From assembly GCA_017465945.1 (NCBI GenBank), contig JAFTVD010000008.1, positions 14,091 to 78,090 of the forward strand: DNA of 64,000 nucleotides. The letters are read 5' to 3'. The stretch is from Alphaproteobacteria bacterium. Lineage in GTDB: Bacteria; Pseudomonadota; Alphaproteobacteria; RF32; CAG-239. This document shows positions 38,657 through 63,022 of this stretch, piece after piece. How positions within the stretch are numbered: position 1 is the first letter of the stretch; each line of letters starts with the position of its first letter. Below the pieces are notes generated by a model that did no database searches, was not told the origin of the DNA, and saw nothing but the letters and a program-made list of their open reading frames with translations. Both the position numbers and the translations under genes were made by a program.

Positions 38657-39372
38657 TTCTTGTCCTTTGCGTTTGCACTTAAAATACGAAAAGCTTCACT
38701 CAAATTATTTTTACATGATACTTTCTTAAACTCTTTAATACTCGTATCATTAATAACTTTTCCTTGAGAAAGCATAACAACTCTGTTTGCAATATCTGCA
38801 TCTTCTAAAACATGTGTCGAAACCAATACTATGTTTTCTTTAGCATATTTTTTCATAAAAGTTCTAATATCATGTTTTTGATTTGGGTCTAAACCATCCG
38901 TTGGTTCATCTAAAATTAAAAATTTAGGTTTATGCAAAATAGCAGATGCAATTTCAACTCGTTTTTTATAACCTTTTGATAAATTCTCGATTCTCTCACC
39001 TAAAACATCAATAATTTGCATTTGTTTTGCGGCACTTATAATCGCTTCTTTTTTATCATTAATATTCCAAATTCCAGCAATCCATAAAAGAAAGTCATAA
39101 ACATACATTTCACTATAAAGAACAGATAGTTCAGGAACATATCCAATATATGAAAGAGCTTTTATACGGTGGTCATTTATATCATTACCAAAAATACTAA
39201 CTTTACCTATCGTTTGTGGTAAATAACCACACATGATTCGCATTAAAGTAGATTTACCGGCTCCATTTTCACCAATAAGAGCAATTATCTCTCCTTTTTT
39301 AAAACGAAGATTTACATTATTTAATGCAACTTTTTTCCCAAAGTTCTTTGAAATGTTTTCTATTTTAATCAT
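38653..39372 (-). CDS. ABC transporter ATP-binding protein (ABC-2/CcmA-like)
   Basis: Start trimmed to MIKIENISKNF (ATG 39372); the ORF-track start is a TTG. Walker A GENGAGKST, signature LSKGYKKRVEIASAI, Walker B LILDEPTDGLD. Confidence 0.85.
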   Translation of the reverse strand: MIKIENISKNFGKKVALNNVNLRFKKGEIIALIGENGAGKSTLMRIMCGYLPQTIGKVSIFGNDINDHRIKALSYIGYVPELSVLYSEMYVYDFLLWIAGIWNINDKKEAIISAAKQMQIIDVLGERIENLSKGYKKRVEIASAILHKPKFLILDEPTDGLDPNQKHDIRTFMKKYAKENIVLVSTHVLEDADIANRVVMLSQGKVINDTSIKEFKKVSCKNNLSEAFRILSANAKDKK

Positions 39373-39521
39373 TTTTTCTCTCAATAATATCAATACTATG
39401 ATACTCTATAACAAAAAATGTTTAAAATTTTCACAATTTAATGTAAATATACTAAAACAATGATGACAAAAAATTATTTATGCCTTATAAATAAAGAAAA
39501 TATGTAAATTAGGAGAATGAC

Positions 39522-40100
39522 GTGGAAGAAAAATATTCTGCAGATGAAGAAAAGTCGATTCGAATTGGTATAGTAAGCCTTATTGCAATAATTATTATGG
39601 TATTCATGACAATATCGCATAATGCCTCTATCAAAAAAGAAGGTGATGGCAATACGTATAAAGTGTATGCTAGCTTTGGTCGAACAGACGGATTAAATGT
39701 AGGTGATGTCGTTAGAATGTCAGGAGTTTCTATTGGTAGGGTTATAGCATCTGAGTTAGATGCAGATTACAATTCTAAGCTAACATTTGAAATAGGTGAT
39801 GAATATAAAATACCTGATGATAGTAGTGCATCAATAATAAGCTTTGGTTTAATTGGTGGTAAATATGTTGAGATAGATGTTGGTGGTTCTGAGGATTTTT
39901 TAAGGTCCGGAGATAGTATTAGCTATACTCAAGACGCTCTAGTTGTTGAAGAATTACTTGATAGAATAATATCAATGGGAAAATCAAAAAATAAACCAAT
40001 AGATGATGATAGTGTTATAAACGATGACAAAGAAAATGATATTGATAATATAGAATATGAAAATACAAGTTTAGAAGAAAAGGGAGATAGCAATGAATAA
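39522..40100 (+). CDS. MlaD-like MCE-domain protein, paralog 1, with acidic tail
   Basis: GTG start with AGGAGA RBS. TM anchor, then MCE core YKVYASFGRTDGLNVGDVVRMSGVSIGRV..GLIGGKYVEID. D/E/N-rich C-terminus. Confidence 0.75.
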   Translation: MEEKYSADEEKSIRIGIVSLIAIIIMVFMTISHNASIKKEGDGNTYKVYASFGRTDGLNVGDVVRMSGVSIGRVIASELDADYNSKLTFEIGDEYKIPDDSSASIISFGLIGGKYVEIDVGGSEDFLRSGDSISYTQDALVVEELLDRIISMGKSKNKPIDDDSVINDDKENDIDNIEYENTSLEEKGDSNE

Positions 40101-40548
40101 AAAACCTGTTGAAACAATTATGGGATTAGTTGTACTTGCCGTTGCAAGCTTGTTTATGTTGTTTGCATATAAGGTATCAGATTTGCAAGTAGTAAAAGGC
40201 TATGAGATAAATGCTCGTTTTCTAAAAGTTGGAGGGCTAAATACTGGTGCAGATGTTATGGTAAATGGAGTTAAAGTAGGTACGGTCATTGCTCAAAGTT
40301 TAGATAAAGATGATTATATGGTTAATGTTAAAATGAGTATATCTCCAAAAATATCTTTACCTAAAGACAGTACTATTAGTGTTGCAGGTGATGGCCTAAT
40401 GGGTGATAAGTTTATAAAAATAGAACCAGGTAAAGCAAAAGATAAATTATTGCCAGGTGATATGGCTAGTAATGTTAAAGATGCCAAATCTTTAGAGGAT
40501 ATGGTTGGTGAAATAATATTTATGGTGACTGATAATGAAGATAAGTAA
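40093..40548 (+). CDS. MlaD-like MCE-domain protein, paralog 2
   Basis: 151 aa: TM anchor, MCE core YEINARFLKVGGLNTGADVMVNGVKVGTV..GLMGDKFIKIEPG. 8-nt overlap with paralog 1. Confidence 0.75.
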   Translation: MNKKPVETIMGLVVLAVASLFMLFAYKVSDLQVVKGYEINARFLKVGGLNTGADVMVNGVKVGTVIAQSLDKDDYMVNVKMSISPKISLPKDSTISVAGDGLMGDKFIKIEPGKAKDKLLPGDMASNVKDAKSLEDMVGEIIFMVTDNEDK

Positions 40549-41266
40549 TAGCTTAAAATTAGGAATATCTGGTTTGATCTTAAGCTCAAGTCTTTCTATG
40601 GCTACAGAAATAGATACAAATTCTGCTCTTATGCAGGCGATGGATAAAGTTACAGGAAGGGTAAATAAAATTACTGTTCCTGTTAACTCAAAAGTATCAT
40701 ACGGTGATTTTTCATTTGTATTACGTTCTTGTAAAAAACGTCCTGCAGAAGAAACTCCAGAAAACTTTGCTTTTGTAGATGTTGCAGATAAAAGTTTTGG
40801 AGAGGAAGAATATAATATTTTTAGAGGTTGGATGTTATCTTCAGCTCCTGGTGTTAACGCAATAGAACATCCGATATATGATGTTTGGTTGTTAGAATGT
40901 GTGGATTCTGATATATCAAATGCTGTATTTCTAACAAAAGAAGAGTTAAATGTTAGAGATAATTTACCAAGTAAAGATATTATTCAGGCTCAAAAAGATG
41001 ATATAAATATTCATGAAAGTGGTGAAAATATTCAAGAGTTAAAAGCAAAAGAGCCAAAAGCTATTCATATTGAAAATTTTATTCAAAAAGATAGGGATAT
41101 TGAAAAAAATATAAAAATACCAACAGATGAGGTGAATATTTCTAAAGAAGAAATGCCTGAGAATTTATTAGCCCAAACAATAGGCGAAAATAAAGAAGAT
41201 ACAGAAACAAATGATGAATTATCTAAGGCTATAGATGAAGAAATCAAAAAAATAAACGAAGATTAA
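40535..41266 (+). CDS. DUF2155-domain protein with a ~110-aa charged C-terminal extension
   Basis: Signal peptide, then ALMQAMDKVTGRVNKITVPVNSKVSYGDFSFVLRSCKKRPAEETPENFAFVDV (DUF2155-like pattern). The mlaD-DUF2155 neighbourhood is typical of Alphaproteobacteria. Confidence 0.6.
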   Translation: MKISNSLKLGISGLILSSSLSMATEIDTNSALMQAMDKVTGRVNKITVPVNSKVSYGDFSFVLRSCKKRPAEETPENFAFVDVADKSFGEEEYNIFRGWMLSSAPGVNAIEHPIYDVWLLECVDSDISNAVFLTKEELNVRDNLPSKDIIQAQKDDINIHESGENIQELKAKEPKAIHIENFIQKDRDIEKNIKIPTDEVNISKEEMPENLLAQTIGENKEDTETNDELSKAIDEEIKKINED

Positions 41267-42816
41267 AAGCTAAAAATATAAATACATACAGATAATATTG
41301 CATATATAATAGATATAGAAAACAATATATTTTGTTTTGGTTTATTTGAAGCAAACAATTTTCCAATAAATAAAGCTTCAGGTAATAATAATAGGATAAA
41401 TAATCTATAGTCAGATGAGCATATATAAGGATAATCTAAAGCATATTTTATTGCATAAATCCATGAGCATAAATATGTTATTGCAAAAAATATCCATAAT
41501 GCCTTACAGGCTATATTCTTTCTCATAAATATATAAACCATACCAATAAATGCACAAACTTTTAATGATAAACTTAAAATATAAAGAATAAATGATGGGA
41601 TATATATTGATTTATTTAATATACTAAAATTCCATTCCCCAAAAAGCTCTGTTTTAATGATTGCTAAAATCATATTTGCATCAACATCATATGGCGCATT
41701 CATAAAAGGAGAAAATAGTTTAGAAAAATCACCGATTCTATCTGTAAGCGATAGATATTTAAAATTTTGCCCCATAGGAGATGTGTCAGGAACATTATAG
41801 AACTGCATATCAAATAGAATGTGGTTTCGCATAATCCATAATAAGGCAACAGGAACAGCAATAATTACAAACAAAGCTATCCCTCTAAGTACTAATTCTT
41901 TGTTTTTTTCTGTTGTTAATTTATATAAAAATACCCATGAAATAGCAGGAGCTAGCAGTAAAATAGACAATTTTGTTAATGTTCCAAGTCCAAGCCCTAG
42001 TGCAACCAGTATAATATAAATTAGTTTGTTTGTATAATACCATTTAATCAAGAAATAAGTTGTAAACACACTCCAAAATAATACTGGAACATCATCAGAA
42101 ATATACCCCGTAAATAAGATAAATGTTGGGTTAAATATAAGTAGTATAAAAATAGCTTTATATGTAACGCCTCTAAACTTTAATAGATATAAAATTTTAG
42201 CAATTAAAACAGAAGTGATAGTAACATAAAATAACGAGAAGTATTGTAAGCTCTCAATGGATATTGTTTGAGATTTCCATAATAAGGTGCTAAACCTTAA
42301 AAAGTACTCCATAAGAATAAAGTGTAGTGGTTGATGAAAGAAATAGTACATATACCACGGATCAAAATTTTTCCAGTTGATGCCGTTCTCTGCAATTTTT
42401 TTCATATAATAAAGCGTTCCGCTTAGGTCATGTTGTCTAAAGTCTATATCTGTATGCACAATGTAAAACAAGTGCACCAAAAAAGATATAAATATAGCAT
42501 AAAAAGTAAAGTGATGAACATTTTTATTATCATTAAATGCGGTATATATAATTTGCAAAATTTGAATAATTAATAAGAATTGATTACTAACAGAAAAATA
42601 AGCATTTAATACCAAAAAAATAATTGATATTAAAAATATAAAAAATCTATCAATATATTTTTTTTGCAAAAGTATAATAAATAAAGATATTGCAATATAA
42701 TTTATTTGATAGTTGTTTATATTAAAATTATAAAAAAACATGCCTGCCGTTATAAAAAACAGCAGACATGTTCCTAAAACAAATAATATTGGGTGTTTCA
42801 ATAATAAATTAAACAC
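41263..42816 (-). CDS. Polytopic membrane protein, GT-C (ArnT/PMT-like) glycosyltransferase fold suspected
   Basis: 517 aa with more than 12 hydrophobic segments. Loop DFRQHDLSGTLYYMKKIAENG...FFHQPLHFIL and later GYISDDVPVLFWSVF resemble GT-C family 39/83 loops. 13-nt gap to the upstream lipoprotein gene. Confidence 0.45.
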   Translation of the reverse strand: MFNLLLKHPILFVLGTCLLFFITAGMFFYNFNINNYQINYIAISLFIILLQKKYIDRFFIFLISIIFLVLNAYFSVSNQFLLIIQILQIIYTAFNDNKNVHHFTFYAIFISFLVHLFYIVHTDIDFRQHDLSGTLYYMKKIAENGINWKNFDPWYMYYFFHQPLHFILMEYFLRFSTLLWKSQTISIESLQYFSLFYVTITSVLIAKILYLLKFRGVTYKAIFILLIFNPTFILFTGYISDDVPVLFWSVFTTYFLIKWYYTNKLIYIILVALGLGLGTLTKLSILLLAPAISWVFLYKLTTEKNKELVLRGIALFVIIAVPVALLWIMRNHILFDMQFYNVPDTSPMGQNFKYLSLTDRIGDFSKLFSPFMNAPYDVDANMILAIIKTELFGEWNFSILNKSIYIPSFILYILSLSLKVCAFIGMVYIFMRKNIACKALWIFFAITYLCSWIYAIKYALDYPYICSSDYRLFILLLLPEALFIGKLFASNKPKQNILFSISIIYAILSVCIYIFSF

Positions 42817-44809: not shown

Positions 44810-45547
44810 GTGATGTTTGATATATTTTATACACTATTTAGATATAAGGATAAAGCACAAAACGAAGAGTTAGGTTATTATCCAGAAAAGGTTGATGTAA
44901 AAGCTTTTCCAGAAAGAAGATATTTGTGGACATCACGTTTTTTTGTTGTGATATCCTGTCTTAGTTTGTGTGTTAGTATGATTCTCGCAAGTGTGTTATG
45001 TATAATGATACCTAAGAAGAAATCTTATATTATGCCTCTGCAAATAGATTACAAACGTTATCAAGTAACAAGAATGGAGTATTCAGAATACGAAGCATAT
45101 GCAGGTAATCTTGTGACAGAAAGTGTTTTAAATGATTATATTATAAAAAGATATACAATAGGCGATTCGTTTGAGGAACTTACACATAGGTATAGTGATA
45201 ATGAATTTCTTAAATTAGCAACAAGTGACGACGTGTGGGGAGAGTTTGAGCAAACCGAACGACCATACTTTGAGGCAATGCAAAGACAAGGTGTTCGTCG
45301 TAAAGTAGAGGTAGAAAATAGTTACCCTGTATCATTTAATTTTTGGCAAGTGCGATTTAATACAATAGATACAATACCAGGAAAAGAAAAACCATTAATA
45401 AGTAAATGGCTAGCATCCATAAGAATGACTTTTAATTTTTCAAGATATGAGGATAAAGATTTAGGATTAAAAAATCCATATGGTACTAATATTGTTACAT
45501 ATAATTTGTCATATCTCGGAAATAACATCAAAAGTGTAAGAAAATAA
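44810..45547 (+). CDS. VirB8/DotI-like type IV secretion inner-membrane component, orphan copy
   Basis: 245 aa bitopic protein (TM helix FFVVISCLSLCVSMILASVLCIMI). By-eye alignment to A. tumefaciens VirB8: MPLQID vs EPFVVRVD, FWQVRF vs LIQVRY, KWLASIRMTFNFS vs HWVSILNFSY, KNPYGTNIVTYNLSY vs INPLGFQVSEYRSD. Confidence 0.6.
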   Translation: MMFDIFYTLFRYKDKAQNEELGYYPEKVDVKAFPERRYLWTSRFFVVISCLSLCVSMILASVLCIMIPKKKSYIMPLQIDYKRYQVTRMEYSEYEAYAGNLVTESVLNDYIIKRYTIGDSFEELTHRYSDNEFLKLATSDDVWGEFEQTERPYFEAMQRQGVRRKVEVENSYPVSFNFWQVRFNTIDTIPGKEKPLISKWLASIRMTFNFSRYEDKDLGLKNPYGTNIVTYNLSYLGNNIKSVRK

Positions 45548-48708: not shown

Positions 48709-49261
48709 CCGGATTTCCTCGTTTTGTTTGTAATGAGTGGAAATATGCACCCAATCTTAATGAGATGTCATTTGCAATAATTTTAGCTGCATTTTTTTCA
48801 TTTTTCTTTTGAGCAAACGTTGTTGAATATGGGTCTCTTAAAATGTCATAACCTAAATAAGCAACACTATTTCCATTAATCAAAGTTTTGTGCTCATTGT
48901 TTTTTAGAACATACGTTACTTTATAAATAACTTTTTTACGAGTTGCTGTAATATCATTTCTTAGGGCTTGGTCAATCTCTTCTTTATTAATTTGAGTAAC
49001 ACTTAAAATATATTTAGGGGATTTGGGTTCACCTTTGGGGGTGAGTTTATCAAGCAAATCGTTACGAATTAATTGTCCAATTCTGTCTTGAATAAGATCA
49101 ATTTTAACACTTGCCATTTCTTCTTTAATTCCAGTATCAAACTCACTATCATAATACCATTCACTACTAGATTTTTTTTCAACATAAAGTGGTTCAAATC
49201 CACATCCAGAAATGAACACACAAAGCACTAAAAGTGCAATATTTTTTCTACTATACAACAA
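48698..49261 (-). CDS. lptE: LPS-assembly lipoprotein LptE
   Basis: 187 aa: lipobox FISGCGFEPLY. Lies between the leuS relic and holA. Confidence 0.7.
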   Translation of the reverse strand: MLYSRKNIALLVLCVFISGCGFEPLYVEKKSSSEWYYDSEFDTGIKEEMASVKIDLIQDRIGQLIRNDLLDKLTPKGEPKSPKYILSVTQINKEEIDQALRNDITATRKKVIYKVTYVLKNNEHKTLINGNSVAYLGYDILRDPYSTTFAQKKNEKNAAKIIANDISLRLGAYFHSLQTKRGNPDEY

Positions 49262-50234
49262 TGTTTACAATCCTATTTGGTATAACAATTACTTTTTTAG
49301 GTTTAATTTTGGTAAGTTTTTCTGCGATATTATCTAAAGATTTAGCAATTTTAACCACCTCATCATTATCTAAATCACGTTCAACTTCAATTACCCCACG
49401 CACTTTGCCATTAATTTGAATAGCAATCGTTGCAGAATTTTCTTTAGCAAGTTCTATATCACCACTAGGCCAATTCTCGTTCATAATAAGAGTATTATAA
49501 CCTAACCTTGCCCACATTTCATCTGCTAAATGTGGTGCAAAAGGTGACATCAGTTTTAAAAGTACCTCATAACATATTTGAGGGATTTCTTTTAATTTCG
49601 CTAAATAATTTACATAAGTCATTAATAAAGAAATAGCCACATTAAACTTCAACTGTTCGATTCCTTTACTAATACTTATAATAGTCTTATGCATAATTTG
49701 CAAATCTTTTCTGCTAGGAGTAACAGGAGTAATTTTGTTAAATAATCCAAAAACTTTACCAACAAATTTATGTGCTCCATTTAGACTATCTTCAGACCAT
49801 TTTACATTTTGATTAAATGGCCCAATAAACATCATATATATCCTAAAAGCATCTATTCCATATGCGTCAATCATTTCATTAATATTAATTATATCATCTG
49901 AATATATTGATGTTTTTCTATTATTTACATCTAGCGTATCGCTTCCATTCATTTTCTTATGGCGAGTAATTACATCCAAACCAATATAAAAACGTACATC
50001 ATTTATATTCAATTTAACATCATTGTACAAAAAGTTTGCTAGTGTATAATTCCTCTTTTTCTCAATAGCCGTTTCTGTTTTATATACCCCCTCATCAAAC
50101 CATATTTTATGCCACTTATTTTCAACAGTTTTGAAGTTGTATCTATCTTCTAAATCCCAATCTTTTTTCCATTCTTCAAAACTTTCTTTTCCATTATATC
50201 TGGCACTAACTACCATTTTGGAAATCCCCATCAC
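49251..50234 (-). CDS. LeuRS-derived ORF lacking the catalytic core and editing domain (in-frame relic or repurposed tRNA-binding protein)
   Basis: 327 aa versus ~850 aa for LeuRS. The N-terminal ~70 LeuRS residues are present but the HIGH motif reads NIND. The match then resumes just after the KMSKS position (MIDAYGIDAFRIYMMFIGP). The anticodon-binding and C-terminal domains are intact (IQINGKVRGVIEV..VIPNRIVNIVV). See finding. Confidence 0.7.
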   Translation of the reverse strand: MMGISKMVVSARYNGKESFEEWKKDWDLEDRYNFKTVENKWHKIWFDEGVYKTETAIEKKRNYTLANFLYNDVKLNINDVRFYIGLDVITRHKKMNGSDTLDVNNRKTSIYSDDIININEMIDAYGIDAFRIYMMFIGPFNQNVKWSEDSLNGAHKFVGKVFGLFNKITPVTPSRKDLQIMHKTIISISKGIEQLKFNVAISLLMTYVNYLAKLKEIPQICYEVLLKLMSPFAPHLADEMWARLGYNTLIMNENWPSGDIELAKENSATIAIQINGKVRGVIEVERDLDNDEVVKIAKSLDNIAEKLTKIKPKKVIVIPNRIVNIVV

Positions 50235-50319: not shown

Positions 50320-51861
50320 TTAATTTTTGGGAACAGCCACAATGTATCTTCCAAATTCTTCAATGTTAAAGTTGTAAAGGAAATATCTATTATTTTTTGT
50401 GGTGATATAAATACAATCATTTGAAATTTTTTCTGTGTTAAGGCCATCCTCAAAACGATAATGCAAAAAACCAGCTGATTCTAGATATGCTTGCGGATAG
50501 TTTCTCCATACACTATGGCGAATATAATCATTCACAGGAATTTTTTGATGCCACAAAACTCTCGGGTAAATAGTATGGCCATCTGTTATTATAATATTAT
50601 ATTTTTTTACTTCTCTTTTACTATTGGCAAATACTAAAGCCTCTTCTAAACCAATAGAAAATTCTTGTTCAGCAAGTTTGTTATAATTGTTAAAATATTC
50701 ATAGCAAAAAAGTATAAAACTACAAAGATATATAGCTATAATAGAGGTAATTATTATCTTTTTCTTGAAAAAAGTAATCCCTAAAACAATTAACCAAACT
50801 AGAGGGAAATATAAAAAATTAAGTCTTGTTGGTGATGGATATATTCCTATTCCATAAATTATTCCAATAATAAGCCATAATACCATCGGTAAATTATAAG
50901 CAATTTTTTTATTTTTTAATTCATAATATAATTTTTGTATCAAAGATATTACCCCTAATATCATAAATAATAAGGAAAACGGATAGAATAGACCAAATTT
51001 AGTGATATAACTATAAATAAAAAAATCTGTTTGCTCTATATATATACTATAAAGGGCTGCCAATTTAATTGGTAAATTATCATATCCCCATTCACTACTG
51101 CGCCAATATAAAAGTTTGGGTACGGATATATATGTACCTCTAATTTCATCAATGTAGCCATAATTAACCAGTAAAAGCAACAAAAGAGGTATATTCAAAA
51201 TGATAAATAAACATCCACTTCCTAAAATATGTAAAAAATTACTTTTATTGATATACCACAAATATCCCATAGAAAATAATGCGATAAAAAAAATAGGAAC
51301 CCATGTTATAGCATAAGAGTATAAAGCAATACTATAAAACAAAACACTTAAATATAAATACTTTATCTTTTTTAATGCTTTTAAATAAAAGTAAAAACCT
51401 GTTAACATACCAAAGGTACAAGCAGAACTTTCTAATCCCCAACGAGATTGAACAATATGCCAAGGAATAATGGCTATAATAAGAAAACCAATAAGAGCAG
51501 TTTTTTTATTATAGCATATCTTAAGTGAACGATAAAAAATATAACAACTTAACACTCCAAGTATAGCTTGAGGTAGTCTTAATACCCATGTTTTAGCATC
51601 TAAAAAATAAAAAAATACTCTCAAAAGATATGAATAAAAGACATTCATTCCACTTCCCCAAGAAATGAAATAAATCGGATTAGTATACCCCCAACTATCT
51701 ATTCCATATTTTGACATTGACCAAGCTTCATAACCAGCAAATGCTTCGTCTTGATTTATTCCACCTGGTATAGAGCCTAAATAAACAAAGCGAGAAATAA
51801 AAACGGTAATCAAAATTACCCAAAATAAAATATCTGCGACATTAAACTTTTTACTCATCAT
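50320..51861 (-). CDS. GT-C fold glycosyltransferase, family 39/83 (ArnT/PMT_2)-like
   Basis: 513 aa polytopic protein: first-loop GGINQDEAFAGYEAWS (DE motif) and VLRLPQAILGVLSCYIFYRSL..IIPWHIVQSR. ATGA overlap with the mlaC-like stop. Confidence 0.65.
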   Translation of the reverse strand: MMSKKFNVADILFWVILITVFISRFVYLGSIPGGINQDEAFAGYEAWSMSKYGIDSWGYTNPIYFISWGSGMNVFYSYLLRVFFYFLDAKTWVLRLPQAILGVLSCYIFYRSLKICYNKKTALIGFLIIAIIPWHIVQSRWGLESSACTFGMLTGFYFYLKALKKIKYLYLSVLFYSIALYSYAITWVPIFFIALFSMGYLWYINKSNFLHILGSGCLFIILNIPLLLLLLVNYGYIDEIRGTYISVPKLLYWRSSEWGYDNLPIKLAALYSIYIEQTDFFIYSYITKFGLFYPFSLLFMILGVISLIQKLYYELKNKKIAYNLPMVLWLIIGIIYGIGIYPSPTRLNFLYFPLVWLIVLGITFFKKKIIITSIIAIYLCSFILFCYEYFNNYNKLAEQEFSIGLEEALVFANSKREVKKYNIIITDGHTIYPRVLWHQKIPVNDYIRHSVWRNYPQAYLESAGFLHYRFEDGLNTEKISNDCIYITTKNNRYFLYNFNIEEFGRYIVAVPKN

Positions 51862-52514
51862 AGCCCCATCATACGTTCTATAGCGTCTTCATTAGCAATA
51901 ATTTTATCATAAAATTTTTCTAAAAACCAATCAATATCTTCACCTTCATCCACAATCATTTGATAAAATCTTTTTCTATATTCGATAACCATACTAACAT
52001 TTGATATTTCAACATCAACAGCTTGAATTTTATCTCTATTGTTTCTAATTAATTTAAATTTAACAGGTATTCTATCAACTTCTAAACCTTCAACAAGTTC
52101 GCCAACATCAACAGAGCATGTAACTGTTGTATAGCGTTCAAACTCGGAAACATTATCTATTGTAAAATCAACATTATCAGTATTAAATTTAAGATTAATT
52201 TGTTTGTAAAGACTTAAAACATATCTCGTAAATAAAGAACTATATCTTCTTTTTTGTTCTTTATTCATTTTTCTAAAATATTTTCCAATAACAAATTTAG
52301 AAATATAATCAAGGTTAACATCCTCTAACATCATTTTATCTAATTTGGCATGCTTCTCAACAATATTGCTCATTCCTAAAATGTTGATTAATTCTTGCCC
52401 TTTGTCATTCGCCCAAATTTTCGCTTCTTGACGAGTTATAGATACATTTTGAGCATTTGTAATTCCAGAAAAAAGTAACAATACCAAAAGTAAAATATTA
52501 AAAAGTTTATTCAT
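51858..52514 (-). CDS. MlaC/Ttg2D-family periplasmic lipid-binding protein
   Basis: Start trimmed to MNKLFNILLLVLLLFSGITNAQ (signal peptide). Core VNLDYISKFVIGKYFRKMNKEQKRRYSSLFTRYVLSLY matches the MlaC-family pattern. Confidence 0.65.
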   Translation of the reverse strand: MNKLFNILLLVLLLFSGITNAQNVSITRQEAKIWANDKGQELINILGMSNIVEKHAKLDKMMLEDVNLDYISKFVIGKYFRKMNKEQKRRYSSLFTRYVLSLYKQINLKFNTDNVDFTIDNVSEFERYTTVTCSVDVGELVEGLEVDRIPVKFKLIRNNRDKIQAVDVEISNVSMVIEYRKRFYQMIVDEGEDIDWFLEKFYDKIIANEDAIERMMGL

Positions 52515-52576
52515 TTTGTCCTCAACAATAAGTTCCATGCAGTAATTATACATAGCACAAATAAAAAAATAATTAA

Positions 52577-54031
52577 TTATTTTAATTCAACCAAATATTC
52601 AAATGAAGTTTTTTTATAAAGAGTGTTGATTATACTAGGAATAAAAACTTGAGAATATTTTGTCTCTCCATAAGTTCTCAAAGCTTTTAAGTCTACATAG
52701 TTTTTCATATAAACAAATTTGGGTTTTTGAGTTAATATCAAATTATTTACATCAACAAGATTTTTTATACTAAATTCTTGTTCCATAACAGGGATAAGCA
52801 TATCAAGACCAAACCAGTAATAACTAGCATCTTTTCTGTATATATTAAAATTTTTATCATATCCGTTCATTAATAAATCATTAGGTGATGAGTTTTCGTG
52901 AACATATTTTGCTAATTGATAGTGCTTAAAACTATCGTGTTTTTCCGATGTTCTTGAAATAGTGTTAAAAATTAAACCTAAATTTAAAAATAAACCAATA
53001 ACCAACAAAATGCTTATAATTTTATATTTTCCTACAATATCCGAAACAGCTCCCGAAACAACAAGCCCTAACAAAATAGCAAGTAAGGTGTAATAGTTAG
53101 GGTGTGGTGCAAAATAAAATCCACGCATTAAAAATTCTGCTACATATAAGATAGATACAATTTTAAAGTAAATATTTTTCTTTTTATAAAAATATAACAC
53201 AACAAATATCCCAAACAAATAAATTGTTGAAAATATATTTTGATACCAAAAAGCGCCTCTTTCAAAATAATATACAAGAGCTTGGTTAAATCTAAAATTA
53301 AGCGAAAAGTATTCAATTCCGGCACCATTTAAGATTATATATGTGAAAAAAAGACAAACTAAAGCAATAGGTGGTATTGCAGAAACTATAACATTTTTTA
53401 ACTTTATTTTTTTTGTAATAATTTGCCAAAGTATAATTAATTCAATAACAATTAAAATTAGGCCAATTTTTTGCAAAAATAAAAGAGATACCGCGAAAGA
53501 TGTAAAGCTTATCACTAAATTTAAAAGTTTTTTATTTTCAATATAACTAAACCAATAGTATATTCCTAATAAAAAGAATAAATTCATATAATTGTCAGGT
53601 CTAAATTGATAAAAATTATAAGCAGTTATAATGTTGCAAAGATAAAAGGAAATTCCAACCAAACCACCACTTTTACTAGTAAAGAACAAAGATATTTTAT
53701 ACATGTATAATAATGTTACGATTGATACTAAAAAACTAATACCTCTTACAACATAAAATACAATAACATCATTATAAAAAAACTTTACAATAGGTGCAAA
53801 AATATACCAAATCAATGGGTGGTGATGCTCAAAAAAATCTCTATATGGAAATAATCCTTCACTAACAAGCCAAGAGGCATGCAAATGTTCAAACTCATCT
53901 ACGATTTGAAATCCAGAAAATATAAGGCCATACAATATAACTAGTAATGCCACAACAATAAAAAGCTTTAACGCATGAATAAAAGCGTTTTCATCAAAAT
54001 CAATTAATTGTTTTTTTATAAAATTCTTCAT
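52577..54031 (-). CDS. GT-C fold glycosyltransferase-like polytopic membrane protein
   Basis: 484 aa: first-loop VDEFEHLHASWLVSEGLFPYRDFFEHHHPLIWY and FRPDNYMNLFFLLGIY, resembling ArnT/PMT_2-type loops. Confidence 0.55.
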   Translation of the reverse strand: MKNFIKKQLIDFDENAFIHALKLFIVVALLVILYGLIFSGFQIVDEFEHLHASWLVSEGLFPYRDFFEHHHPLIWYIFAPIVKFFYNDVIVFYVVRGISFLVSIVTLLYMYKISLFFTSKSGGLVGISFYLCNIITAYNFYQFRPDNYMNLFFLLGIYYWFSYIENKKLLNLVISFTSFAVSLLFLQKIGLILIVIELIILWQIITKKIKLKNVIVSAIPPIALVCLFFTYIILNGAGIEYFSLNFRFNQALVYYFERGAFWYQNIFSTIYLFGIFVVLYFYKKKNIYFKIVSILYVAEFLMRGFYFAPHPNYYTLLAILLGLVVSGAVSDIVGKYKIISILLVIGLFLNLGLIFNTISRTSEKHDSFKHYQLAKYVHENSSPNDLLMNGYDKNFNIYRKDASYYWFGLDMLIPVMEQEFSIKNLVDVNNLILTQKPKFVYMKNYVDLKALRTYGETKYSQVFIPSIINTLYKKTSFEYLVELK

Positions 54032-55773: not shown

Positions 55774-56985
55774 TTATTTTTTCATAACTTGAACACCTGG
55801 AAGTTCTTTTCCTTCCATCCATTCTAAGAAAGCCCCACCTGCTGTTGAGATGTATGTAAACTTAGAAGCAACACCAGCGTTCTCTAAAGCTGAAACAGTA
55901 TCACCGCCACCTGCAACAGATGTTAATTTTCCTTCTTGAGTTAATTTTGCAGCATATTGAGCAACAGCATTTGTCGCAGTATCAAAAGGCTTCATTTCAA
56001 ATACGCCCAAAGGTCCATTCCAAACCAATGTTTTGCATTCATCAAGTTTGGCATTGATTACTTCAATAGTTTTTGCGCCAACATCAAGTAAGCTCCAACC
56101 TTCTGCAGGTATATCGCTAAGTTCAACTGTTTTGTGTTCAGCCATTGGTTTGAATTCTTTAGATACAACAACATCTTTAGGTAATACAATTTCGCATCCA
56201 TTAGCTTTAGCTGTAGCCATAATTTCTTTTGCAGTATCTAACATGTCCATTTGAACCAAAGAATTTGCTTCATTAACAGTATCAATGCCACTTGCTTTCA
56301 TAAAGGTGTGAGCCATACCGCCAGAAATAACCAATTTATCAACTTTTTTAACTAAATTGTTCAATAAATCCAACTTTGTTGAAACTTTTGAACCACCAAC
56401 AATAGCAATAAGTGGACGAACAGGGTTGTTTAATCCTGTTGATAATGCGTTAACTTCTTCAGCCATTAATAGTCCCATAGAAGATGGACGTTCTTTAACA
56501 GCGGCAACCATTGAGGCATGTGCTCTATGAGCTGTAGAAAAAGCGTCAGATACATAAACATCGCAAACTTTAACTAATTCTTTTGCAAAAGCTTCGTCAC
56601 CTTTCTTTTCTTCGTTATAGAAACGTAAGTTTTCTAAAAGTAAAACTTCGTCATTTGCCATGTTTTTAACAGCAACTTCTACTTTTTCTCCGATGCAATC
56701 ATCAACGAAAACAACTTTGTTACCTAAAGCTTTCTCTAAATCTTTTACAATATGTGATAAAGAGTTTTTCATATCGCCTTTACCTTCAGGTCTTCCAAAG
56801 TGAGATATAACTACAACTTTTGCTCCTTTTGCCATTAAAGCTTTAATTGTAGGAATAGTTCTATCGATTCTAGCTGTATTTGTTACGTTGAAATTTTCAT
56901 CCATTGGAACATTAAGGTCAGCACGTAACATTGCAACTTTACCATTTAAGTTGCCCAAATCTTCTATTGTTCTATATTCTGTCAT
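55774..56985 (-). CDS. pgk: Phosphoglycerate kinase
   Basis: Start trimmed to MTEYRTIEDL (GAGGGAAA RBS). RADLNVP, SHFGRP and GGGDT motifs. Confidence 0.93.
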   Translation of the reverse strand: MTEYRTIEDLGNLNGKVAMLRADLNVPMDENFNVTNTARIDRTIPTIKALMAKGAKVVVISHFGRPEGKGDMKNSLSHIVKDLEKALGNKVVFVDDCIGEKVEVAVKNMANDEVLLLENLRFYNEEKKGDEAFAKELVKVCDVYVSDAFSTAHRAHASMVAAVKERPSSMGLLMAEEVNALSTGLNNPVRPLIAIVGGSKVSTKLDLLNNLVKKVDKLVISGGMAHTFMKASGIDTVNEANSLVQMDMLDTAKEIMATAKANGCEIVLPKDVVVSKEFKPMAEHKTVELSDIPAEGWSLLDVGAKTIEVINAKLDECKTLVWNGPLGVFEMKPFDTATNAVAQYAAKLTQEGKLTSVAGGGDTVSALENAGVASKFTYISTAGGAFLEWMEGKELPGVQVMKK

Positions 56986-57066
56986 TAAATTTTCCCTCAA
57001 ATAAAAAAATCCCTGCGTCAAGTTTGGCACAATAATTTGTGTTAAACCATAACGCAGGGTAAAAGA

Positions 57067-58146
<1,080 letters not shown>

Positions 58147-58241: not shown

Positions 58242-58270
58242 AAAAAAAAGTACCGATTTTATTCGGTACT
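58242..58270 (-). terminator. Rho-independent terminator after the 1138-aa gene
   Basis: AGTACCGA (58249..58256) / TCGGTACT (58263..58270). The minus-strand transcript ends in a U-run (A-run 58242..58248 on plus). Confidence 0.8.
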
Positions 58271-58294
58271 TTAAGGATAATATGTGAAAAAAAG

Positions 58295-61200
58295 TTATCT
58301 ACCTTCTACTTTTCTTCTTACAACCATATCAACATCTTTGACGTTGAGATTTTTTTCTAATTCTCTAGTTGGTATATTATCTGCAACTTTTTCTGTAGAC
58401 ACAATTTCTTTTCCATCATATTCGTAACCTTTATGTAGGCTAAATGTGTCATCAGTTTTCTCTTCAGCATATGTTATAGTTCCTTCTCTTTCTTCAAAGA
58501 TTGGTTCTGGTGAAACATTTTGGGTAGGGCGCATATAGTATCTATCAAAGCCATCACTACCTGGGTTTGTAACTCCGCTAGAAGCTTGTTCTGTTGTATA
58601 ACTTCCAGCTTCTTCGCAGGCTCCCGCTGTAAAGTAGCGAACCATTACAGGGCTTGTTCCTGTTACACCATCAATAGTACCATTTTCATTTACGCTATCA
58701 ATAACTTCTTTGATTTTTGTTGCATTTTCCACAGAAATGCTATCATCGCACTCTTTTAGATAATCTACTACATTTGTAATTTCTTTGGCAAATTTACCAT
58801 GCTCGTCATTTGACCAAGCAATCATTTGCTTAATAGAAAACATAGATTGTTCAACACTTAAACCTTCGAAAATACCACCTTTAGCACGCATTTCATCTGT
58901 TATTCTTGCTGCATAATCATCATATGCATCTTCGCCAAAATTATCTTTAAAGAATGTTTGCATTAAGTTATATTGCTTTTCTGTAATACCAGTATTTTCA
59001 AAACCTCCACGTTCTGGAACATTTCCAGCAGCCGGTGTTCCAACTTCTACTTCATCAGAATCAGCAATAACCTCTGTTGCGGTTTCATCAAAAATAATTT
59101 CAGCTTCAACTCCGGTATAAATACCACCTGTTGCAATAACTTCAGTATTGGTAACCTCTATTGCAGCTTCATCAGTAACAATTTCAGCTTCAACTCCTGT
59201 ATTAACACCACCTGTTGCAATAACTTCAGTATTGGTAACCTCTATTGCAGCTTCATCAGCAACAATTTCTGCTTCAACTCCAGTATTAATACCACCTGTC
59301 GCAACAACTTCTTCTACAGCTGCGCCTTCAACAACTTCAGTTGAAATATTTTTACGAACAACCATTTCTTGATCTGTTACATTTAAATTTTCTTCTAATT
59401 TATCTGTTGGAATTTCACTTCCAATTAATTCCTCATTACCAATATTATCGGCTTTATATAAATCAAAAGAATTGTCATTTGTATATACGGTAGTTGAAGA
59501 GCCTTCTCTTTCTTCGAAAATAATCTCTTCTGTTTCAATAGTTGGAGTTTCTTCTATAACTTCAACTATTTCTTCATCGCAACCACAATCGTATGTTTGT
59601 GAATGAAGTACCGCTTTTTCTCCACAATTAACATCACGTCCGGTAACCACAACACAATCTTTACCTTCTACATCTTTGATTGCACCATTATCTAAAACAT
59701 CACTAAGTTTAGTTACATCATCATTAGTGATTTGTTCATCACAACCAAAGAAAGCGTCTAACTTTGCAATAGTTTCACGGTGTTGAGGTAAATTCCAAGA
59801 AGACATTCTTTCATACTTAAATAGTACTTCATCTCTAGTCATACCTTCAAATTGACCACCCGCTTGAAGCATGCTATCATCAATTTTGCAATAAAATTCT
59901 TGATATTTGTCAGAATTTCCCCAAAATGATTGTAATCTTTTCCATTGAGCTTTAGTAATACCTGTTTCTTCACTCCATTCAGTTGGGGGTGTAATTTCAA
60001 CATTTGATACTTCCATATCATTACTAAGGTTATTAGCTTCAACCTCTTGCTCTACAACAGCACTTTGTAAAGATACACTATCTGCTTGATTTGTTAAGCT
60101 ATCATTAGCTTCAAAGCTTTTAGCAAACAAAGTATCAACTTTAGCTGTATCAACTTCAACAGAAGCTGTATCAGCAGCTAAACCTGTTTGCTCATTAACA
60201 TTATTAAGTAAGCTATTAGCCGCTTTATTTGCAGCTGCATCTCCTAAATCAGCTGTGCTTCTTATATCAGGATTTTCGCCGTCGCAACAATTAACCATAA
60301 TGGCACTAACACCAATAAATCCTGCAACTGTAAATGCTTTATCCCAAAAATCTTTCTTCTTATTTTTTAAAGTGTGAACAGTGTTTATTGTATTATTAAC
60401 AGAAGATACAGCCAAACTTGATAATCTTTGTGCGCTTCTTGCAGCAATAGCTCCAACGCCACTACCTAAACTTCCTAAAGCACCACTTGCAACAGCTCCA
60501 GCAGCACCAAGTCCAACTAAACCAGCAGCACTACCCCAGCCAGCTTCTTTATAGTATGCTTTACGTTTTTCTTTGTTGCTAAATATGTTATTAGAAGCAT
60601 TTTTAAGTCTATCTAAAAATCTTACTTTAGGTGCTGTATTACCTTCTTTTTTAGCAACTTCTTTCTCTAAACGCTTTGTTCTTCTTGCTTCTGTAATAAT
60701 TGGCCATACCCAAGAAGATGCAGCCTTATATGCGCCATATGCTACAACAGCAGTTCCAAGCCAAGGAGCACTTGTAGCAGTACCAACAATTAAACCTGCT
60801 GTAGCTGCAACATCTGTAATTACCTTTGGAGATCTGTCTTTCAAGTTTTTAGCAAACTCATATCTTTGTCCCCAAACTTGTTTTGCTTTTTCACTAAATG
60901 AAGTTTTAGCCTTGTTTACAAAAATGCTTGCCTTAGAGAAGCATTCTTGAGCCTTACCTTTTGCTGATAAAGCTTTGTCAGCTAGCTTCTTTCTATAGCT
61001 TTCAGCTTTTACTTCGCTTTCTGCGCATGCTGTAATCACTAAATCAGAAGATACTTCAATTTTTTCTTCCATATCAATAGCTTTATCTTGTAAAGCCATA
61101 TTTCCAAGAGCTTCTTGTTGTTTTACAAAAAATTCTTTATCATCATTAACAACAGCATCAGCTGCATTTGGGATATTATTTTGTATTTGAGCAGCAGTAC

Positions 61201-61711
61201 GTAATTGAACTAAAGTCCCTAAAAATGAATCTTTAACTTCATCAAATAATGTTTCTCTTTTTTCTTCAATAGATTGGCTAGCAAAATCATGACTTCTAGA
61301 TTGTTCAAGCATAACATCAAGTTTTGCTTTCTCAATCAACATATCAATATGTTTATTTCTTTCTTCTAAAGATACCCCTGCACCATCTTTTCCATCAACA
61401 ATAGGAGTATTGTTAATTGCTGTTTTAACATCACCATCGCTTAACAATGAGTTCTTGATATCATCATTGTCTAATTCATTATATAAGAATTCTGTATTGT
61501 CAGCAAGTTCTTTTGGACTTGCTGTAATAACTTCAGCTTCTTCTTGTTTTTTCTTAAACGCTAATTCATATTTGTGAGCTTCTTCTAATGATTTAGCAAA
61601 TTCTTCATCATTTTTTCTAACTATTTCTAATGCTTGAGCAAAAGTTTTTTCATCAGCTTCAATGTATCCGCCGGCAATCTCATAAGCTGTGTCCAAATCC
61701 ATGTTACTCAT
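58295..61711 (-). CDS. Giant orphan protein (1138 aa): helical N-terminus, glycine-zipper TM cluster, duplicated ~220-aa module, 28-aa tandem repeats
   Basis: Single uninterrupted ORF with its own 228-bp upstream region and its own terminator. TM/Gly-Ala-rich segments at aa ~297-340, 391-427 and 455-475. Module A aa ~578-787 and module B aa ~900-1134 share GIT.xQ[WY], GGxFEG[ML][ST], IFEEREG and NLNV.D..MVVR[KR]. No family recognised. Confidence 0.8.
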   Translation of the reverse strand: MSNMDLDTAYEIAGGYIEADEKTFAQALEIVRKNDEEFAKSLEEAHKYELAFKKKQEEAEVITASPKELADNTEFLYNELDNDDIKNSLLSDGDVKTAINNTPIVDGKDGAGVSLEERNKHIDMLIEKAKLDVMLEQSRSHDFASQSIEEKRETLFDEVKDSFLGTLVQLRTAAQIQNNIPNAADAVVNDDKEFFVKQQEALGNMALQDKAIDMEEKIEVSSDLVITACAESEVKAESYRKKLADKALSAKGKAQECFSKASIFVNKAKTSFSEKAKQVWGQRYEFAKNLKDRSPKVITDVAATAGLIVGTATSAPWLGTAVVAYGAYKAASSWVWPIITEARRTKRLEKEVAKKEGNTAPKVRFLDRLKNASNNIFSNKEKRKAYYKEAGWGSAAGLVGLGAAGAVASGALGSLGSGVGAIAARSAQRLSSLAVSSVNNTINTVHTLKNKKKDFWDKAFTVAGFIGVSAIMVNCCDGENPDIRSTADLGDAAANKAANSLLNNVNEQTGLAADTASVEVDTAKVDTLFAKSFEANDSLTNQADSVSLQSAVVEQEVEANNLSNDMEVSNVEITPPTEWSEETGITKAQWKRLQSFWGNSDKYQEFYCKIDDSMLQAGGQFEGMTRDEVLFKYERMSSWNLPQHRETIAKLDAFFGCDEQITNDDVTKLSDVLDNGAIKDVEGKDCVVVTGRDVNCGEKAVLHSQTYDCGCDEEIVEVIEETPTIETEEIIFEEREGSSTTVYTNDNSFDLYKADNIGNEELIGSEIPTDKLEENLNVTDQEMVVRKNISTEVVEGAAVEEVVATGGINTGVEAEIVADEAAIEVTNTEVIATGGVNTGVEAEIVTDEAAIEVTNTEVIATGGIYTGVEAEIIFDETATEVIADSDEVEVGTPAAGNVPERGGFENTGITEKQYNLMQTFFKDNFGEDAYDDYAARITDEMRAKGGIFEGLSVEQSMFSIKQMIAWSNDEHGKFAKEITNVVDYLKECDDSISVENATKIKEVIDSVNENGTIDGVTGTSPVMVRYFTAGACEEAGSYTTEQASSGVTNPGSDGFDRYYMRPTQNVSPEPIFEEREGTITYAEEKTDDTFSLHKGYEYDGKEIVSTEKVADNIPTRELEKNLNVKDVDMVVRRKVEGR
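59060..59311. repeat. Three tandem 84-bp (28-codon) repeats inside the giant gene
   Basis: Exact 84-bp period (the same 14-mer, apart from one mismatch, starts at 59097, 59181 and 59265). Encodes EV[VI]ATGG[IV]NTGVEAEIV.DEAAIEVTNT three times. Copies 1 and 2 differ at only a few bases; copy 3 is more diverged. Confidence 0.9.
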
Positions 61712-61939
61712 ATTTTTTGTACTCCTAAAATGTAAATGTTTGCGGGCATATTACCCTATTTTTTAGATAAAATCAACTACTTTTTTGTCAATTTTAAATA
61801 ATTTTTAAAAAATTGTCAATATTATTTTTACAAATAATGTAATATCAAGTGGTTAGATTATATTTTTGTGTAATAAAAAATAGATTGCTAAATATAATCA
61901 AAGATATTATAAGAGTTAAAAACAAGAAAAGGGGATAAA

Positions 61940-63022
61940 ATGCTTGTAGATATATTTGATTTTGATTTAGATAAAGAACTTATTGCTAAAACACCAGCAA
62001 GTCCAAGAGATACATCAAGGTTATTAGACTTAACAGATGATGTTAATATCAATGATAGGCATTTTTATGATTTGCCAGATATTTTAGAAAAAGGTGATGT
62101 TCTTGTTTTTAATAATACCAAGGTTATTCCTGCAAGATTGTATGGAAAAAGAGGAGAGGCAGAAGTCGAAGTTACTTTGTATCATCCAGAAAATGGTTTA
62201 ACATGGTGGTCTTTTATAAAAAATTCTAAACGATTACGCCCAAATGATGTTGTAGTATTTTATACTTCAGATATATCTCCTGAAAAATCTACATTTAAGG
62301 CAAAAGTACTTGAAAAGCATGGTGAAGATGGTGTTTTGATAGAATTTTTATGTTCAGCTGATGATTTATCAAAAATGCTAGAGGCTTATGGACTTATGCC
62401 ACTTCCTCCATATATAAAAAGAGAAAAACCTCTTCCAGGGCTTTGGAATAAATATAACGATAAAGAAAATTATCAAACGATTTATGCTAAACATGAAGGT
62501 GCAGTTGCTGCGCCAACTGCGGGTTTGCACTTTACTGATAACGTATTAAAAAAATTAGAAGAAAAGGGAATTGAAAAGGTGTTTTTAACTCTGCATGTTG
62601 GAGCTGGTACTTTTTTGCCTGTAAAAACAGATAATACAGATGATCATAAAATGCACGCCGAATATGGTGTTATAACAAAAGAAGCTTGTGATGCTATAAA
62701 TAAAGCTAAAAAAGAAAATAGAAGAGTTATAGCTGTTGGAACAACATCTGTACGTTTACTAGAAACAGCAACAGATGATAATGGTATCTTGCACCCATTT
62801 AATGGTGAGACCTCAATATTTATAACTCCTGGCTATAAATTTAAGATGATTGATTATATTATAACGAACTTTCACCTACCAAAATCAACATTGTTTATGT
62901 TAATTTGTGCAATAGCAGGAACAGAGCGTATGAAACAAGCTTATGCTCATGCAATTAAAAATAAGTATCGTTTTTATTCATATGGCGATAGCTCAATCTT
63001 GAAATGTGTAAACAAAATTTAA
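61940..63022 (+). CDS. queA: S-adenosylmethionine:tRNA ribosyltransferase-isomerase QueA
   Basis: 360 aa: LDKELIAKTPASPRD, MPLPPYIKR, AAPTAGLHFT and GTTSVRLLE motifs. Confidence 0.93.
   Translation: MLVDIFDFDLDKELIAKTPASPRDTSRLLDLTDDVNINDRHFYDLPDILEKGDVLVFNNTKVIPARLYGKRGEAEVEVTLYHPENGLTWWSFIKNSKRLRPNDVVVFYTSDISPEKSTFKAKVLEKHGEDGVLIEFLCSADDLSKMLEAYGLMPLPPYIKREKPLPGLWNKYNDKENYQTIYAKHEGAVAAPTAGLHFTDNVLKKLEEKGIEKVFLTLHVGAGTFLPVKTDNTDDHKMHAEYGVITKEACDAINKAKKENRRVIAVGTTSVRLLETATDDNGILHPFNGETSIFITPGYKFKMIDYIITNFHLPKSTLFMLICAIAGTERMKQAYAHAIKNKYRFYSYGDSSILKCVNKI

Follow-up and report, generated by a model that had tools for sequence, protein, structure and literature searches.

A fast-evolving protein family of uncultured gut Alphaproteobacteria with a predicted lipoprotein-type signal inside the polypeptide

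Results

A signal-peptide-like element within gene X

We analysed a 64-kb stretch of alphaproteobacterial DNA (64,000 nucleotides of contig JAFTVD010000008.1, hereafter the window) and, within it, the longest open reading frame (ORF), here called gene X, whose product is identical to a database protein (P0001) labelled as a hypothetical protein of an Alphaproteobacteria metagenome-assembled genome (MAG). X represents an undescribed protein family found in uncultured gut Alphaproteobacteria. We consider it about an even chance that X is a lineage-specific envelope protein in which an internal signal exports an acidic linker and two modules, with lipoprotein-type processing in the members whose signal is canonical. 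This signal lies at the junction of the third hydrophobic segment with the linker. It is new relative to an earlier interpretation made by a model from the DNA letters (the sequence-only reading), which missed it.

The sequence-only reading had divided the protein into a charged, helical N-terminal part (aa 1–290), glycine-zipper membrane hairpins, an acidic low-complexity linker and two paralogous modules separated by a 28-aa repeat, and most of this plan held up (Table 1). The N-terminal domain, N1, carries a net charge of −19 and was all-helical when modelled with AlphaFold2 (AF2). The linker (net −15) is unconserved, with a column identity of 0.14–0.15. BLASTP confirmed the paralogy of modules A and B (32% identity, E = 2e-29), each sub-hidden Markov model (sub-HMM) also matching the other copy, and Tandem Repeats Finder (TRF) called 2.9 copies of an 84-nt repeat between them at 90% matches. 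The hairpins stood in part: three hydrophobic stretches of Gly/Ala-rich composition are present, with many [GAS]xxx[GAS]xxx[GAS] motifs, but their Kyte-Doolittle peaks over a 19-residue window (KD-19) of 1.39, 1.54 and 1.59 make them borderline as transmembrane hairpins.

The third of these stretches (segment 3) has the make-up of a signal peptide. In the window protein an n-region, LKNKKKDFWDK, is followed by a 16-residue uncharged h-region, AFTVAGFIGVSAIMVN, and then by Cys475-Cys476; Cys475 is present in 34/40 aligned sequences. We scanned 149 full-length family members for a PROSITE PS51257-style lipobox pattern combined with a hydrophobic h-region and upstream Lys or Arg. The strict pattern was found internally in 53/149, at residues 138–516, and with a relaxed −1 position the count rose to 65/149, the window protein among them; its own lipobox, I-M-V-N-C475-C476-D, fails the strict form [LVI][ASTVI][GAS]C and passes only the relaxed one. 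Among the 101 module-bearing members, at least 66 had a Cys exactly at the boundary between hydrophobic segment and linker. The 46 distinct junctions showed Leu at −3 (27/46), Ala, Val, Thr or Ser at −2, Ser (29/46) or Ala, Gly or Asn at −1, and Gly, Ser, Cys, Asn or Thr at +2, which, judged by its residues, is the profile of a classical lipobox.

A more permissive scan, in which Pro was also allowed at −4 to −2, yielded 54 distinct junctions. The uncharged run before the Cys had a median of 16 residues (interquartile range 15–17), which is the length of a signal-peptide h-region and below that of a typical transmembrane anchor. The n-region was net positive in 53/54 junctions, and the 30 residues past the Cys were net negative or neutral in 44/54. 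As a measure of background, the strict pattern occurred internally just three times in the 20,033 aa of other window ORFs, each time in a hydrophobic stretch, and it flagged the two genuine N-terminal lipoproteins of the window, LptE and a TolC-like protein.

An internal translation start would turn such an element into an ordinary N-terminal signal, and we rejected this candidate. The window gene has no ATG or GTG with a Shine-Dalgarno sequence ahead of segment 3, and most relatives lack a Met at this place. At two loci, L024 and L025, a single uninterrupted ORF (1008 and 1000 aa, respectively) in the syntenic position encodes the N-terminal domain, the signal (...KLTSTVLATIMIASS/CGPINNN) and the modules. 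Thus, the signal is truly internal to the translated protein.

The junction is not equally well preserved across the family. A large sister clade carries a canonical YVL[ATV]S/CGE junction, and members that lack the extra hydrophobic cluster have a single hydrophobic segment after N1, ending in L-S-S-C, L-P-S-C or V-V-A-C. In the clade of the window protein the motif has degenerated to I-[IM]-[AV]-N-C-C-D. Every case of a lost or decayed lipobox was in members with the extra hydrophobic cluster, and in orthologs lacking the cluster the lipobox stays canonical; lipobox and cluster may be alternative ways of holding parts of the protein at the membrane.

Topology and domain structure

Charge is distributed around the hydrophobic segments with the same sign in every aligned sequence. 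The region before segment 1, loop 1 (aa 332–389) and loop 2 (aa 425–457) were net positive in 40/40, so that segment 1 has two positive flanks throughout, and the region after segment 3, the linker and both modules were net negative in 40/40. N1 was likewise net negative in 40/40. By the positive-inside rule, segments 1 and 2 would return to the cytoplasmic side and segment 3 would cross the membrane. Each module has a pair of cysteines (Cys657/Cys696 and Cys988/Cys1032) that is present in 40/40 sequences and forms the most conserved columns across 43 diverse module copies, which fits structural disulfides in an oxidising compartment. The unanimous charge bias and the near-invariant Cys pairs together point to an N-in/C-out topology, in which N1 would be cytoplasmic and the modules would probably end up outside the inner membrane.

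The same data make it improbable that X stays wholly on the cytoplasmic side by monotopic or amphipathic membrane association, with cytoplasmic modules and metal-binding cysteines. Module A has a C-x9-C-x12-C-x-C cluster that could bind metal, but module B and most of the diverse modules have a single Cys pair, too few ligands for zinc. Borderline hydropathy, the lack of an N-terminal signal peptide and an acidic character throughout would suit such an arrangement; unanimous charge polarity across segment 3 and a conserved lipobox-type residue pattern would not, and long disordered spacers made of acidic Ser/Thr-rich repeats are a usual trait of extracytoplasmic stalks.

AF2 models built on the family alignment fit the domain plan, with confident globular N1 and module cores and disordered linkers. 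The model of aa 1–480 was all-helical, with a predicted template modelling score of 0.78 and a predicted local distance difference test (pLDDT) mostly above 90 over aa 60–290, dipping to 69–85 at aa 100–120 and 170–210. Its hydrophobic helices were of low to moderate confidence, and those of segments 1 and 2 were both broken mid-way, in segment 1 at aa 312–316. The model of aa 576–1138 contained two alike cores, each of six helices and a beta-hairpin, with a pLDDT of about 90 over most of each (in module A, about 90 over aa 576–675 and 76–79 over aa 676–705). The beta-rich module tails were of low confidence, although one tail HMM matches the tails of both modules, and linkers and repeats were disordered (pLDDT <30).

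The spacer between the modules is variable. Other lineages have unrelated acidic Ser/Thr-rich repeats in this place, with periods of 13, 15, 19, 20, 28 and 38 aa; the spacer has thus been re-invented repeatedly, and the 28-aa repeat of the window protein is the local version of a length-tolerant stalk. Just before the helical core of module B (window 58980..59030, aa ~894–910) lies the top motif of this module, D-S-D-x-[IV]-x-x-G-T-P-[AS]-A-G-x-V-x-E-R-G-G, which is kept even in the most distant architectures and could be a binding loop or a processing site. At the other end of the protein, the N-terminal motif of about 45 aa, [ST]L[ED]xAYEI[AV]GGY...ALExV[RK]xDDPxFA, is tandemly duplicated in 11 representatives. 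This duplication occurs in variants without the Gly-zipper cluster (L024 5668..8694, L025 5731..8733 and P0051–P0076).

Segments 1 and 2 are conserved within the clade. The sequence-only reading had likened all three hydrophobic stretches to those of pore-forming or translocator-type proteins, and had guessed at a surface or secreted effector-like protein, perhaps connected to a VirB8-like gene. Its broader guess of a membrane-inserting protein of a host-associated bacterium agrees with our data; the species-level genome hits are all gut MAGs. The narrower ones fared badly. The Gly-zipper cluster is missing from the syntenic orthologs at L024 and L025, which retain only the lipoprotein-type signal, so the cluster is dispensable and not the core of the function. 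Segment 3 ends in a conserved Cys with internal lipoprotein-type signal geometry, which implies export of the modules to the periplasm by the Sec pathway and not release as an effector. Foldseek comparison of the N-terminal model with the PDB gave no match at E ≤ 0.001; the best had E = 0.43 and the TM-score was at most 0.18, all to helical bundles. ClyA-family toxins (HblL1, Cry6Aa, MakE and SmhB) were among the top rows, but they were not significant (E 0.43–0.86, probability ≤0.1, TM-score about 0.1–0.14, root-mean-square deviation >19 Å).

The link to type IV secretion did not survive either. A VirB8-domain ORF lies 13 kb from X (44810..45547, plus strand; Pfam E = 6.9e-11), but it is solitary: no other type IV secretion gene was found near it, and the homolog loci of X likewise have none. 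Its neighbourhood consists of mlaD, an ABC transporter, a PMT-like gene, a TolC-like/He_PIG lipoprotein gene, clpP-clpX, holA and lptE, and it is probably a VirB8-fold protein with another role. Given, in addition, that X is a single-copy syntenic core gene with housekeeping flanks at nearly every locus examined, distant ones included, and that it has no phage or plasmid relatives, we consider it very improbable that X is a secreted effector, toxin or translocator inserting glycine-zipper hairpins, with or without type IV export, despite its Gly-zipper motifs and the host-associated life of the organism.

Distribution and rate of change

X had been taken for an orphan, which it is not. We found 48 clusters at 90% identity (the identical entry and 47 more, mostly full-length and 38–76% identical), and an exhaustive profile search gave 143 clusters at 50% identity, 67 of them at E ≤ 1e-30. 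A scan of species-representative genomes gave 23 loci, all in gut MAGs of Alphaproteobacteria, with water-buffalo colon and water-deer rectum among the named sources. These MAGs are labelled as uncultured Alphaproteobacteria, as Rickettsiales, or, mistakenly, as "Acetobacter" or "Azospirillum", labels typical of GTDB order RF32, to which the family would presumably belong. Sub-HMM mapping on the 143 representatives distinguished three architectures: N1, hydrophobic cluster and two modules, as in the window; N1 and two modules without the cluster; and N1 and hydrophobic cluster followed by other C-terminal regions. We found no stand-alone module lipoprotein and no separate N1 gene in the family, and its short members are fragments produced by contig ends or frameshifts.

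The order queA/X/gap-pgk was conserved in nearly all loci with flanks to inspect, as in the window contig. Around distant relatives the neighbours were housekeeping genes only (ileS, alr and tgt), with no conserved partner gene. We compared X and its neighbours with the window copies at about 25 loci. Identity was 93–97% for GapA, 82–93% for Pgk and 80–87% for QueA (74% at one locus with a split gene), against 23–58% for the N1 domain of X, 33–69% for its hydrophobic cluster (43–69% in syntenic full-length loci) and 25–76% for its modules. At L024 and L025, GapA was 96% and QueA 80–81% identical to that of the window. Conserved gene order and high identity of the flanks, with low identity of X itself, show that X is a single-copy, syntenic, vertically inherited and unusually fast-evolving core gene of its clade. 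A sub-HMM scan found no second X paralog in the window. An origin from phage or plasmid was rejected, as tblastn against 50,697 phage records gave no relatives and no plasmid relatives were found.

Searches for known families and folds

The sequence-only reading recognised no known domain, and the searches bear this out. The single sequence of X gave nothing significant against Pfam, NCBIfam or PDB sequences, and no family of the curated libraries used (Pfam-A 2025, NCBIfam 20.0, PADLOC and PHROGs) was above threshold; best E-values in PHROGs were 0.0065–0.08, and PADLOC gave nothing. Nor did profile searches assign the modules to any well-characterised housekeeping family. Across all 40 aligned members, Pfam returned only sub-threshold noise (DUF2895, ApoC-I and GTA_TIM) and no domain of the PodJ-like tetratricopeptide repeat (TPR)/Sel1 or peptidoglycan-binding kind. 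The best recurrent match, DUF2895, covered a 40-residue stretch of module B in 6/40 members and reached at most 19.5 bits when the members were re-scanned, against a cutoff of 22.6. Distant relatives had no Pfam domains.

Profiles and structures extended this picture. A whole-family profile had no hits among PDB sequences, and when the module profile was run against a large database, three fragments of the X family were all that came back. The profile of 43 module copies matched the phage P68 tail fibre among PDB sequences in two pieces; their independent E-values were 33 and 3.2, and we attribute the match to chance. Foldseek comparison of the modules with PDB and BFVD gave no match at E ≤ 0.001. 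Identity as a phage tape-measure or tail protein was set aside, as there was no phage homology, BFVD gave nothing and the context is one of housekeeping genes. Thus, N1 and the modules are both undescribed at the sensitivity reached, and these sequence and model searches offered no family or fold relative from which a biochemical role might be assigned.

Genomic setting

The ORF calls place X, the longest gene of the window (the runner-up encodes 787 aa), between gap-pgk and queA, as had been proposed. Downstream, on the strand of X, come gap (57067..58140) and pgk (55774..57030); queA (61940..63022) is divergent, and lgt (PF01790) lies beyond queA, 2.5 kb from X on the same contig. X has its own 228-bp upstream region (61712..61939), also described before, as was the terminator hairpin. 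With a promoter-like site, a Shine-Dalgarno sequence and a terminator of its own, X appears to be monocistronic.

Table 1. Features of gene X and its control signals in the window
Feature	Position	Strand	Basis
Sigma-70-like promoter match, TTGACA-17-TAAAAT (11/12)	61791..61819	-	consensus match only
Shine-Dalgarno AGGAG, 10 nt before ATG	61722..61726	-	sequence inspection
ORF X, complete, 1138 aa plus stop codon, ATG start	58295..61711	-	ORF call
N1 domain, aa 1-290, acidic, all-helical, no signal peptide	60842..61711	-	AF2, charge
Conserved N-terminal motif of N1, aa 4-48	61568..61702	-	
Hydrophobic segment 1, aa 297-331, Gly/Ala-rich helix-break-helix, turn at SAPW	60719..60823	-	KD 1.39
Hydrophobic segment 2, aa 390-424, glycine-zipper stretch GWGSAAGLVGLGAAGAVASGALGSLGSGVGAIAA, both flanks basic	60440..60544	-	KD 1.54
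Signal-peptide-like element (segment 3), aa 448-476, Cys475-Cys476 at 60284..60289	60284..60370	-	motif scans
Acidic low-complexity linker, aa 477-575	59987..60283	-	composition
Module A core, aa 576-720, six helices and beta-hairpin, Cys657/Cys696	59552..59986	-	AF2, paralogy
Module A tail, aa 721-790, IFEEREG ... NLNVTDQEMVVRK, low-confidence beta strands	59342..59551	-	AF2, HMM
Tandem repeat, 84 nt (28 aa) x 2.9, acidic spacer	59068..59311	-	TRF
Module B core, aa 881-1050, GTPAAGNVPERGG lead-in, Cys988/Cys1032	58562..59071	-	BLASTP, AF2, alignment
Module B tail, aa 1051-1138, IFEEREG ... NLNVKDVDMVVRR	58298..58561	-	BLASTP, AF2, HMM
Intrinsic-terminator-like hairpin, 10-bp stem, then T-run	58247..58272	-	sequence

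Several neighbouring genes deserve mention in their own right. The gap ORF (57067..58140, minus strand) has a 22-residue N-terminal extension relative to its homologs, BLAST alignments beginning at residue 23, and the gap genes called at L001, L024 and L029 encode 335 aa; translation probably begins at the Met of MTIRVGING, near nt 58074. The minus strand also encodes three paralogous membrane glycosyltransferases of the PMT/PMT_2 (ArnT/GT39/GT83-like) kind, at 41263..42816, 50320..51861 and 52577..54031. Two of these genes flank that of MlaC, 4–8 kb downstream of X; relatives keep the order X-gap-pgk-amine oxidase-PMT_2-MlaC. As pure speculation, such enzymes could glycosylate Ser/Thr-rich periplasmic linkers like that of X.

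Two tandem MlaD-domain genes followed by a DUF2155 gene (39522..41266, plus strand) adjoin genes for an ABC ATPase and a 787-aa ABC-2/ABC_transp_aux fusion protein (36293..39393, minus strand), and together with MlaC (51858..52553) these form an expanded lipid-trafficking gene set. Finally, a 327-aa ORF (49251..50234, minus strand) has a single domain, the anticodon-binding one of class I tRNA ligases. It lies directly upstream of lptE-holA, the usual place of leuS, where the source contig calls a 321-aa gene. A split LeuRS is one possibility, a frameshifted or truncated leuS another.

Discussion

We propose that X is made as one polypeptide, of which the acidic helical N1 domain would fold and stay in the cytoplasm. 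Segments 1 and 2 would turn back to the cytoplasmic side, as Gly-zipper hairpins or as re-entrant elements. Segment 3 (aa ~448–476) would serve as an internal, type-II-oriented Sec signal that exports the C-terminal ~660 residues to the periplasm, that is, the disordered acidic linker, module A, the repeat spacer and module B, with one disulfide stabilising each module. In canonical members, the exported half would most likely be diacylglyceryl-modified by Lgt and severed by LspA (signal peptidase II). This would apply to the YVL[ATV]S/CGE sister clade and to practically every member that lacks the Gly-zipper cluster. The products would be a membrane-anchored fragment on the cytoplasmic face and a separate periplasmic, outer-membrane or surface lipoprotein bearing two modules on flexible stalks. 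The lipoprotein pathway is represented nearby, by lgt and by the canonical N-terminal lipoboxes of LptE and the TolC-like protein. The rapid divergence of X and its changeable spacers suit a protein with a structural or interaction role in the envelope better than they suit an enzyme.

For the window protein itself the prediction is less firm. As its lipobox is degenerate, its processing is uncertain and it may remain intact; it may be inefficiently processed, or bitopic and tethered by segment 3.

Several observations weigh against the proposal. The window lipobox is non-canonical, with Asn at −1 and then a second Cys, and the Cys is lost in 6 of the 39 aligned relatives of the window protein. 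The architectures in which N1 and the hydrophobic cluster occur without full modules have no lipobox, so lipidation is not essential to the whole family. Hydropathy peaks, at just 1.4–1.6 on a 19-residue window, are borderline for transmembrane segments. Module A has three extra cysteines and hence an odd total. N1 evolves as fast as the modules thought to be exported, which is unlike diversification driven by exposure of the outer part alone. No ORF with LspA motifs was located in the 64-kb window. Lgt and LspA would, moreover, have to accept a signal peptide behind an N-terminal domain of 200–475 aa, and in the searchable literature we found neither an earlier internal lipobox nor a lipoprotein precursor with an N-terminal extension.

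Some of these points would be as expected, or more so, if segment 3 were a permanent signal-anchor with the same N-in/C-out topology. X would then remain an intact bitopic or polytopic inner-membrane scaffold, following the logic of PodJ, RodZ or TolA, and the junction Cys would be unlipidated, or lipidated without cleavage. The degenerate lipobox of the window clade and its missing cysteines agree with this, as do the similar evolutionary rates of N1 and modules, and the fact that the two are never found as separate genes is what would be expected if their covalent link matters. A parallel would be E. coli PBP3, whose membrane anchor has a lipobox-like motif, is only marginally lipid-modified and is not known to be cleaved. 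Such an anchor would be short, at 16 uncharged residues, for stable insertion. Moreover, the lipobox profile (Leu at −3, Ser, Ala or Gly at −1 and a small residue at +2) and the h-region length are kept in at least 46 distinct junctions, a pattern not easily accounted for were these junctions never exposed to Lgt and LspA, and every ortholog seen without the extra hydrophobic cluster retains a canonical lipobox. We regard a permanent anchor, the leading rival of our proposal, as possible but somewhat unlikely, and favour an internal signal that is processed in canonical members.

If that processing takes place, a more far-reaching and rather doubtful extension is that one ORF gives two proteins on opposite sides of the inner membrane, signal peptidase II acting as the site-1 protease that splits the precursor. 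The N-terminal half, left on the remnant signal peptide, could then be freed by a signal-peptide peptidase or an RseP-type enzyme. Lipoprotein export would be stoichiometrically coupled to a cytoplasmic event, in a circuit like regulated intramembrane proteolysis run on the lipoprotein pathway. We found no description of such a two-protein arrangement around a lipoprotein signal in the literature searched.

Use of the internal signal would mean that Lgt and LspA can act on a signal peptide preceded by hundreds of residues, and that one translation product can yield both a cytoplasmic-face protein and a lipoprotein. Standard predictors of lipoproteins and signal peptides look at N-termini only and would miss it. 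A family-wide internal lipoprotein signal would surprise specialists, and the case for it is one of sequence inference. The family provides natural comparison sets at the same locus, with the lipobox canonical, degenerate or absent and the Gly-zipper cluster present or not. However it is processed, X is a candidate surface or envelope determinant of a gut alphaproteobacterial lineage, and, as a conserved, rapidly diverging protein of about 1100 residues in a widespread uncultured gut group, a good marker candidate.

Among known systems, ClyA-family alpha-pore-forming toxins and type III secretion translocators share with X a long helical bundle followed by hydrophobic helices. Unlike them, X has no significant Foldseek match and no secretion-system context, and it is a core gene with housekeeping flanks. 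With their many [GAS]xxx[GAS]xxx[GAS] motifs, segments 1 and 2 resemble the GxxxGxxxG glycine-zipper segments of channels and toxins, but by charge both flanks of each segment would be cytoplasmic, and the cluster is dispensable in syntenic orthologs.

The resemblance to envelope proteins is closer. As in LpoA and LpoB, the Cys is followed by a disordered linker of about 100 residues and then by globular modules, whereas X has a module fold without a match, two modules, a hypervariable repeat spacer and a giant N-terminal pre-domain. With bitopic scaffolds (Caulobacter PodJ, RodZ and TolA) X would share an N-in/C-out orientation, a helical cytoplasmic domain and a flexible periplasmic region. 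It has no sequence or fold similarity to them and lacks TPR, peptidoglycan-binding, helix-turn-helix and TolA-III domains. PodJ is also proteolytically processed, and X is possibly split into fragments too, though the enzyme would be LspA and not PerP or MmpA.

With lipoprotein precursors handled by Lgt, LspA and Lnt (PS51257-type) the junction element shares its basic n-region, its h-region of about 16 residues and its L-[ASTV]-[SAG]-C motif with small or polar residues after it, as found in the 53 strict-pattern members. In those precursors the uncharged h-region spans about 7–22 residues and the Cys normally lies within roughly the first 15–35 residues, whereas in the X family the signal stands behind a folded domain of cytoplasmic type. 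The window protein departs further, with its Cys at 475, Asn at −1 and double Cys, and the family has no homology to known lipoprotein families. X belongs to no curated family; in its working it would come closest to a lipoprotein precursor fused to a bitopic envelope scaffold.

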